Shown: positions 1-461 of the stretch, piece after piece
How positions within the stretch are numbered: the stretch's first letter is position 1
How the letters are laid out: each line of letters begins with the position of its first letter
Virus record (IMG/VR): IMGVR_UViG_2645727743_000022
Source: a virus
Lineage: Duplodnaviria; Heunggongvirae; Uroviricota; Caudoviricetes
DNA: 19,471 nt
Strand: one strand, 5' to 3'
Translations under genes and position numbers: made by a program
Notes under the pieces: generated by a model
Databases searched by the model: none
What the model was told of the DNA's origin: nothing
Seen by the model: the letters and a program-made list of their open reading frames with translations, nothing else

Positions 1-168
1 TCAAGCATTATTTATGCTGTTTCTTTTTATCACCGACCACAGCAATACCACAATGCCGCAGACCAGCACCCCATCCGCCAGCACCGACATGATTCTGCTG
101 GTGAAATCCACCATCACCACCAGAAACAGCAGGAGTGCAGCCACAACCAGGCGCAGTTTTACCGTCAC
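1..168 (-). CDS. Small hydrophobic protein (55 aa, two predicted TM segments), GTG start overlapping the stop of the upstream TerB-like ORF
   Basis: Hand translation of the minus strand 168->4: MTVKLRLVVAALLLFLVVMVDFTSRIMSVLADGVLVCGIVVLLWSVIKRNSINNA, stop at 3..1. Start GTG 168..166 overlaps TGA 167..165 (GTGA coupling). No SD; below the 60 aa cutoff of the ORF track. Confidence 0.3.
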   Translation of the reverse strand: MTVKLRLVVAALLLFLVVMVDFTSRIMSVLADGVLVCGIVVLLWSVIKRNSINNA

Positions 169-461
169 AGGTGATTATCCATACGAAGACCCAGAACACC
201 GGCAATCTCTTCCAGCACCTTGCGCTCTTCCGGCTCAATTTCGCCTTCTGCCTCCGCAATGGCCACCGCCACATCCAGCACATCTTCCGCTTCACGCGTA
301 TCGTGTTTCACATCCTCGATCTCACGTAACGCCGCACGACGACCAATTTTAAAGTTCGTATCCAGCTGACCGATAATGGTTGCGCTCATCGCATTAATTT
401 CTGACGTAAACGCGGACAGCGCTGGCTGATTACGCAGTACCTGTTCGATCGGAAGCCTCAC
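165..461 (-). CDS. TerB-like domain protein (98 aa, GTG start)
   Basis: C-terminal motif AEGEIEPEERKVLEEIAGVLGL matches the TerB/DjlA-N signature (DG..EP.E...L..IA..LGL) from memory. SD-like AGGTGG about 4 nt before GTG at 461. Alternative ATG start at 389. Confidence 0.45.
   Translation of the reverse strand: MRLPIEQVLRNQPALSAFTSEINAMSATIIGQLDTNFKIGRRAALREIEDVKHDTREAEDVLDVAVAIAEAEGEIEPEERKVLEEIAGVLGLRMDNHL

Follow-up and report, generated by a model that had tools for sequence, protein, structure and literature searches.

Introduction

At the very start of a 19,471-nucleotide stretch of viral DNA (IMG/VR record IMGVR_UViG_2645727743_000022; this whole stretch is called the window below), a short reading frame with a TerB signature runs into a second frame for a very hydrophobic peptide of 55 amino acids. 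This arrangement raises the question of what the two frames are, whether they are intact and what they may do for the phage that carries them. A first-pass annotation, made from the letters of the DNA alone, had proposed several roles for the small protein, from a holin to a membrane toxin or a membrane-stress function.

The window is a lambdoid (lambda-like) prophage of Escherichia coli, and the two frames belong to a phage gene pair that is already known and routinely annotated, tciA/tciB. We consider it probable, at about 0.8, that positions 1-583 of the minus strand are a degenerate tciA-tciB accessory operon, lying in the late region between the tRNA genes and the lysis cassette.

Results

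Identity and setting of the gene pair

The frame of 98 aa (165-461, minus strand) matches the Pfam family TerB (PF05099) with E=1.3e-5 and 25.9 bits against a cut-off of 24.4, where an intact homologue reaches 60.2 bits, and it matches PHROG 632 'tellurite resistance' with E=3.4e-41. The TerB signature that had been assigned to it without any database search is thus confirmed by the profile search. The frame of 55 aa (1-168, minus strand) is intact and matches DUF3927 (PF13064; E=3.7e-16, 59.3 bits, cut-off 25) as well as PHROG 1470 'TciB-like' (E=6.5e-28). Using megablast, we found that the same two genes are named tciA/tciB or 'TciA/TerB-like protein' in JLK-2012, PPyecE_EH1910 and Evi, and RefSeq labels them 'tellurite resistance TerB family protein' and 'DUF3927 family protein'. 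Even the exact proteins are present at NCBI, the longer one as 'TciA/TerB-like protein [Escherichia coli]' and the shorter one as 'DUF3927 family protein [Escherichia coli]'. The expectation that so small a frame would normally be missed did not hold, since it carries the label 'DUF3927 family protein' or 'TciB' in RefSeq and GenBank. The tci names originate with phage P1 (GenBank notes, PMC10695390) and were derived from homology only. DNA of the pair occurs in 840 of 5,426 complete E. coli genomes, mostly in several prophages per genome.

The setting within the window is that of a lambdoid prophage, with an integrase gene at 18158-19471 (plus strand), a CI-type repressor gene at 10837-11532 (plus strand) and a Cro-like gene at 10437-10709 (minus strand). 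On the minus strand, the window also has genes for a DnaB helicase (4758-6197) and an antiterminator Q (4139-4504), which were identified by the Pfam families that the same genes have in contigs with the same allele of the pair. They are followed by a small wHTH gene (2247-2627), an N6/N4 DNA methylase gene (1038-2096, minus strand) and three phage tRNA genes (754-997, minus strand), which lie upstream of tciA, as had been noticed at first reading. Their anticodons are CAT, TCG (Arg) and TCT (Arg); the tRNA with the CAT anticodon is a tRNA-Ile in the RefSeq annotation of a homologous locus. In an Rfam search of positions 1-3000, these three tRNAs were the sole matches with a meaningful score. 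The gene order suggests that tciA and tciB are situated in the late, Q-dependent region, between the tRNA genes and the lysis cassette.

Directly past the last tRNA gene, a hairpin with a T-run resembles an intrinsic terminator (723-738, minus strand), and a conserved leader of about 140 nt (584-722, minus strand) extends from there to the start of tciA. The leader is kept in JLK-2012 and Evi and is common to prophages with different tRNA sets; its motif was found in at least 120 viral contig stretches. Its predicted fold is modest (z = -2.05), and promoter prediction gave no sigma-70-like promoter for the coding strand of the stretch from the terminator to tciA.

tciA is a pseudogene of a full-length TerB homologue

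Intact TciA proteins are 141-149 aa long across the homologues, and shorter entries are partial or broken. The family profile matches the solved structure of Klebsiella TerB (2JXU) with E=1.3e-14, aligning residues 13-137 with residues 19-144. An AlphaFold2 model of an intact relative (pLDDT 85, pTM 0.79) contains helices at residues 4-36, 44-55, 64-80, 82-94, 100-115 and 122-135, and a Foldseek search with this model returned the TerB-like folds 2H5N (probability 1.00) and 2OU3 (probability 0.85). Because the profile match to 2JXU is nearly full-length and the model retrieves TerB-like folds, intact TciA is a true TerB homologue. Together, these data show that it is a full-length TerB protein of about 143 aa, a six-helix bundle with two ADGxxxxxE motifs. 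The first 22 residues are strongly basic, with a net charge of +7, and the rest of the protein is acidic, with a net charge of -13.

The gene in the window does not encode such a protein. By alignment with Evi, JLK-2012 and E. coli JB2, combined with three-frame translation, we were able to trace tciA over its full extent of 165-583 (minus strand), starting with the original ATG at 583-581, and we identified three lesions. Codon 20 is a TAA stop at 526-524, where intact alleles have GAG. A deletion of 2 bp lies between positions 461 and 462, and a deletion of 11 bp lies between 450 and 451; together they shift the frame by 13 bases. The larger deletion removes E46 of the first ADGxxxxxE motif, a residue that is invariant in an alignment of 31 sequences. 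The GTG start of the 98-aa frame (459-461) sits on the junction of the 2-bp deletion.

The 98-aa frame begins only at about residue 50 of the intact protein and corresponds to residues 50-143 of the 143 positions of PHROG 632 and to 63-109 of the 118 positions of the Pfam profile. Compared with the model, it would lack helix 4-36, the loop of the first motif and half of helix 44-55. Hence, neither a complete TerB domain, with both ADGxxxxxE repeats and all six helices, nor an uninterrupted frame from the family start codon is present. The first reading had described a short TerB-signature protein; the TerB assignment stands, but the shortness is not natural, and the pseudogene behind it had been overlooked. 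The 98-aa 'TerB protein' is the C-terminal fragment of a tciA pseudogene.

As further signs of relaxed constraint we considered two substitutions, D117E in the second TerB motif and P45S in TciB, and rejected both. They also occur in a relative, L022, whose tciA remains open over its whole length, even though a run of seven A puts the ATG out of frame. Since they are common to a relative with an open tciA, these substitutions are older than the lesions.

A different view of the short frame is that it encodes a functional, shortened TerB isoform, which is translated from the new GTG behind a Shine-Dalgarno-like sequence and keeps tciB translated by coupling. The 2-bp deletion and a D39G change have indeed created AGGTGGTGA right before the new in-frame GTG, and this stretch agrees with the consensus Shine-Dalgarno sequence in 8 of 9 bases. 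The product still scores above the Pfam TerB cut-off, and the allele is found on 19 contigs. However, the isoform would have to function without helix 1, without the first metal-type motif with its invariant E46 and with only half of helix 2 of a six-helix bundle. The distance of 0-3 nt between the Shine-Dalgarno-like stretch and the GTG is probably unfavourable. Moreover, three independent lesions, one of them an early stop, are what decay usually produces, even more of tciA is missing from a related allele, and the TciA family contains no natural class of about 98 aa. We regard a functional isoform as improbable. Some translation of the remnant, and hence of tciB, may nevertheless start from AGGTGGTGA and the new GTG.

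tciB is a conserved gene that is coupled to tciA

The first position of the window coincides exactly with the edge of the tciB TGA stop codon. At the other end of the gene, the GTG start overlaps the tciA stop by four bases (GTGA at 165-168), which agrees with the coupling proposed earlier. The own Shine-Dalgarno sequence of tciB is weak and consists of just GGA about 9 nt upstream of the GTG.

The description of the product as a very hydrophobic peptide with two transmembrane segments and a basic tail was also correct. TciB has a GRAVY value of 1.50. Residues 7-20 and 33-47 form two apolar runs, the basic residues K4 and R6 lie at the N-terminus, and the C-terminal tail, which is also basic, starts with K48-R49. 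This corresponds to the family, whose members are about 50-60 aa long and consist of two hydrophobic helices with basic residues at both ends. The conserved D21 and D32 are located around the turn, and the D21-F-T/S-S and D32-G motifs are present. In the alignment with TciB of P1, Pollock and 434, the nearly invariant P45 is Ser in the window, which is the sole deviation.

In order to sample loci independently of their coding integrity, we located them through the non-coding leader and scored the genes with HMMs. In this sample, the median pairwise dN/dS was 0.065 for tciA and 0.33 for tciB, and the GTGA overlap was kept in 32 of 33 alleles. These comparisons of sequences show that both genes are under purifying selection across the family; tciB is a real gene in the family at large. 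Its frame is conserved in related prophages, as the first-pass annotation had expected, and well beyond them. Both frames are open in 76 of the 91 unique sequences, only tciA is broken in eight and only tciB is truncated in three. The ratio of breaks, 8:3, is close to the ratio of the gene lengths (2.6:1; 432 versus 168 nt), and there is thus no sign that loss of tciA forces the loss of tciB, nor that tciB is retained for an independent role. An apparent special retention of tciB upon decay of tciA, which was seen in a first sample, was discarded: that sample had been picked by TciB similarity and was biased.

The broken allele of the window was found in at least 31 blocks of assemblies, with GCA_001266405.1 and GCA_001265795.1 as examples, and the same lesions are present in four of the compared sequences (L005, L007, L008 and L011). 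In two contigs, a further deletion fuses the wHTH gene to the middle of tciA, with loss of the methylase and tRNA genes, which looks like continuing decay. Other broken tciA alleles of E. coli prophages include an E46* nonsense mutation, several replacements of the 5' part and a change from A6 to A7 at codons 7-8, which annotators bridge with a TTG start. The persistence of the exact window allele is compatible with neutrality and also with a residual function.

These alleles bear indirectly on the earlier suggestion that TciB is a small membrane toxin and TciA its antidote, as in a toxin-antitoxin or addiction module. Two tightly coupled genes, one of them for a small and very hydrophobic protein, would suit such a module, and toxins of the hok type do occur in these elements, with hokD present in the same prophage of relatives. 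However, alleles with tciA broken and tciB open are frequent in E. coli and persist stably; they include the window allele, E46* and others, and the frequency of breaks follows gene length. The pair is also found in strictly virulent phages, where addiction has no purpose, and neither TciA nor TciB matched a PADLOC defence model. Since so many E. coli genomes combine a broken tciA with an open tciB, a toxin with a TerB-like partner is a poor fit, and we consider it quite improbable.

Distribution of the pair and relation to ter genes

The pair is not restricted to lambdoid prophages. Apart from P1, it is present in the strictly virulent, N4-like phage Pollock, where it lies beside N4-type RNA-polymerase and replication-type genes, in phages of Salmonella and Klebsiella, in the jumbo Erwinia phage ChrisDB and in the Pantoea phage LIET2. 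It therefore spans Enterobacterales phages of the lambdoid, P1-like, N4-like and jumbo types. A contig scan yielded nine species-level loci, including Franconibacter, Pantoea, Pseudescherichia and Buttiauxella, which are too few for statistics on the association with tRNA genes. In all nine, the TerB gene is followed by a small ORF for a two-TM protein; in eight, this ORF is a clear DUF3927 member and overlaps with the TerB gene by -1, -4 or -8.

Both genes also occur without the other. No TciB partner accompanies the TerB genes of phages of Pseudomonas, Vibrio and Sinorhizobium, and in phage 434 TciB has no TerB neighbour and sits behind an unrelated membrane protein of 247 aa, which we rejected as a hidden TerB (hhalign probability 0.07). 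TciA and TciB can hence exist singly, and their pairing is stable in phages of Enterobacterales, although it is not obligatory. The only two apparent TciA-TciB fusions among the database proteins, which contain both Pfam domains (P0164 and P0215), turned out to be a frameshifted read-through and a rearranged chimera, and were not accepted as natural. Overall, a TerB gene with a coupled gene for a two-TM protein forms a stable unit under purifying selection across lambdoid, P1-like, N4-like and jumbo phages.

The homology of TciA to TerB of the ter operon could indicate that the pair serves in lysogenic conversion and gives the host resistance to tellurite or colicins, since ter clusters make their hosts resistant to tellurite, phages and pore-forming colicins (PMC11003894). 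The surroundings do not favour this explanation. None of the genes terC, terD, terE and terZ is present near the TerB gene of the window, where the neighbours are the tRNA genes, the DNA methylase, a holin and a lysozyme gene, and the authors of the study on phage PMBT3 did not expect terB by itself to give tellurite resistance (PMC8421299). In addition, the genes belong to lytic or late transcription units and to virulent phages, no promoter is predicted before tciA, and the TerB gene of the window is broken. Lysogenic conversion is therefore very improbable.

A separate lysis cassette lies beyond the window

The sequence past position 1 was read from contigs with the identical allele. A full-length match to the Rfam sRNA STnc100 starts 8 nt past the tciB stop (117 bits, gathering score 47) and is followed by a strong terminator. 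About 650 bp downstream of tciB, the contigs encode a class II holin of 71 aa (PF04971), a DUF1327 protein, a lysozyme, Rz/Rz1 and terminase. Other prophages carry a sialate esterase gene that is inserted between tciB and the holin gene. The slot of tciAB corresponds to the slot of stx in Stx phages. The pair thus lies toward the lysis side, as had been proposed at first, lysis genes do follow, and the real lysis cassette is situated just outside the window.

A role of TciB as holin, pinholin or antiholin of this cassette, as also suggested at first, is most unlikely: the two hydrophobic helices with a short basic C-terminal tail and a basic N-terminus superficially resemble class II holins, and tciB precedes the lysis genes and shares their strand, but the protein matches no holin family in Pfam and gave no BLASTP alignment with the 71-aa holin of its own prophage, the cassette of holin, lysozyme and Rz is complete without it and set apart by the sRNA match and the terminator, tciB is coupled to TerB and not to an endolysin, and in the P1 ban operon and in Pollock no lysis genes are annotated near the pair. 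Because a separate lysis cassette follows and TciB has no similarity to holins, the holin and antiholin readings are both unsupported, and a lysis function of tciAB is probably to be dismissed. The 55-aa frame is TciB, a DUF3927 protein.

Discussion

Possible function of tciAB

We found no experimental report in the literature on the function of any phage TciA or TciB. In P1, tciA, tciB and tciC were non-essential in a genome-wide CRISPRi screen (PMC10695390), which indicates that any role of the two proteins is accessory.

The preferred reading, a degenerate accessory operon, leaves the question of what the intact pair contributes. As the most economical model, and by analogy, we tentatively propose that TciB may anchor TciA at the inner membrane and that the pair may stabilise or modify the membrane of the infected cell until lysis; we hold this to be possible rather than probable. 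TciB would act as an anchor in the inner membrane, or as a partner there, and keep the acidic TerB domain of TciA on the cytoplasmic side. As basic residues are found at both ends of TciB, both ends are probably cytoplasmic. Such an anchor would parallel the reported complex of TerB with TerC and the membrane-anchored TerB-like domain of DjlA.

Expression of tciAB may be expected during lytic growth, given its place on the lambdoid late transcript, in the C1-repressed ban operon of P1 and in the virulent phage Pollock. Translation of tciB probably relies on ribosomes that terminate at the tciA stop, since its own Shine-Dalgarno sequence is weak. With tciA broken, tciB of the window is therefore probably poorly translated and the module probably non-functional.

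The intact pair may modulate the state of the host inner membrane during infection, for instance by protecting it from premature depolarisation, pore-forming colicins or superinfection. Taken further, intact tciAB would be a device that steadies the inner membrane and is switched on in lytic growth by temperate and virulent phages of Enterobacterales, a view that we consider unlikely. The membrane would then be kept energised until programmed lysis, and the effects of depolarising abortive-infection effectors, pore-forming colicins and superinfecting phages would be blunted. If true, tciAB would be an equivalent, on the side of the phage, of the phage and colicin resistance that bacterial ter clusters provide, and the window would carry a dead copy of it. 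Among the roles suggested at first, a membrane-stress function is still a reasonable guess.

Comparison with known systems

The class II holins and pinholins share with TciB the small size, the two hydrophobic helices, the basic C-terminus and the position on a late transcript. TciB differs from them in that it shows no sequence similarity, is not encoded beside an endolysin gene, is coupled to TerB and lies outside lysis cassettes in the P1-like and N4-like phages.

DjlA, a membrane-anchored DnaJ-like co-chaperone, has an N-terminal transmembrane segment followed by a TerB-like domain, and what it has in common with our proposal is that a TerB-like domain is kept at the membrane. TciA gives a weak but specific match to the DjlA model (NCBIfam PRK09430), with E=1e-6 and far below the cut-off, and it is not a member of this family, although one source calls a TciA homologue 'Dna-J like membrane chaperone'. 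In contrast to DjlA, TciA has no J domain, and the membrane element is a separate polypeptide that is encoded after the TerB domain.

A closer relationship exists to TerB of the terZABCDEF cluster, as represented by Klebsiella KP-TerB (2JXU), with which TciA shares full-length homology and the TerB-like fold. In both cases, a soluble TerB protein is encoded beside a gene for a membrane protein, and a TerC-TerB complex has been reported for the ter system (PMC11003894). The membrane partner in the window is a two-TM protein of 55 aa, whereas TerC is a large multi-pass protein, and no similarity was detected between TciB and TerC. The other ter genes are absent here, and tciAB is carried by phages and associated with expression in lytic growth.

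The closest known counterpart is the pair of phage P1, which consists of the same two families in the same order. P1 TciA is a TerB-like protein of 141 aa that also matches the TerB family, and P1 TciB is a DUF3927 protein of 54 aa (E=7e-31 against DUF3927). As in the window, stop and start of the two genes overlap and phage tRNA genes adjoin them; in P1, the tci genes are flanked by tRNA genes. A further small gene of P1, tciC (35 aa), lacks an equivalent in the window. Moreover, the P1 pair belongs to the ban operon, where it lies downstream of the C1-controlled Pban promoters and before ban, and has no annotated lysis genes nearby, whereas the pair of the window lies in the Q-dependent late region. 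The tci genes of P1 have been reported to be induced in P1vir infection. P1 TciA is about 42% identical to the lambdoid type, and the P1 copy is intact, whereas tciA of the window has become a pseudogene.

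Results and discussion

In lambdoid prophages, in P1, in the jumbo Erwinia phage ChrisDB and at one Franconibacter locus, tRNA genes directly adjoin tciAB, the gene pair encoding the TerB-family protein TciA and the small two-TM protein TciB (DUF3927; 55 aa in the window). We located these tRNA sites at positions 754-997 of the window and, among the sequences compared, at 1616-1769 and 3201-3276 of L018, 586-1054 and 2647-2814 of L218 and 3528-3613 of L225. The sets beside tciAB differ between lambdoid prophages (Ile2/Arg/Arg, Asn/Thr/Gly or Met/Lys/Arg), and the adjacency is absent at the N4-like and Pantoea loci. 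The tRNA neighbourhood could represent a common 'moron' slot, or tciAB could be a module that moves jointly with the tRNAs. The terminator that follows the tRNAs is separated from the tciA start by a leader of about 140 nt (window 584-722, minus strand). This leader is kept even where the prophage tRNAs differ, and at least 120 stretches of viral contigs contain it as well. A long hairpin is predicted in this leader, its fold being just modestly better than those of shuffled sequences (z = -2.05).

Related prophages show several forms of tciA decay. Using E. coli prophage contigs (L021-L100 and L101-L217), we compared codon 46 and codons 7-8 of the gene. At the invariant E46 of the first ADGxxxxxE motif, one shared nonsense change (GAG to TAG) is present in about half of the closely related prophage alleles; this codon is also lost in the window, there through the 11-bp deletion. 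At codons 7-8, many related alleles have a run of A7 instead of A6, so that the ATG no longer lies in frame; such alleles are annotated as starting at a TTG, and the predicted N-terminus then reads 'MVFLVKK' (database protein P0127). In two contigs a winged-helix-like gene is joined to mid-tciA by a deletion that has taken out the methylase, the three tRNAs and tciA's 5' half. In the window this gene corresponds to a 126-aa ORF (2247-2627, minus strand; compared with L004 and L006), which is annotated in related contigs as a winged-helix-like protein of 65 aa (MLKQQDMT...).

Within the late region but on the opposite strand, between the antiterminator gene Q and the methylase, lies a gene for a 395-aa protein whose N-terminal domain is DUF4236 (window 2784-3971, plus strand). 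It looks like an inserted cargo gene.

In phage 434 (L019, 2612-3844), TciB has 52 aa and is flanked, in place of a TerB gene, by predicted membrane proteins of 247 and 62 aa; other partners are therefore possible for DUF3927. Directly 3' of the tciB stop, just outside the window (8 nt past its position 1, minus strand), Rfam gave a full-length match to the STnc100 sRNA (RF02076; 117 bits, where the gathering score is 47; E=2e-26). It was found at 8176-8356 (plus strand) of L005, a sequence with the same broken tciA allele; a GC-rich hairpin with T8 comes after it (L005 8384-8402). The STnc100-like sRNA may derive from the 3' UTR of the tciAB transcript. [quoted passage not shown]
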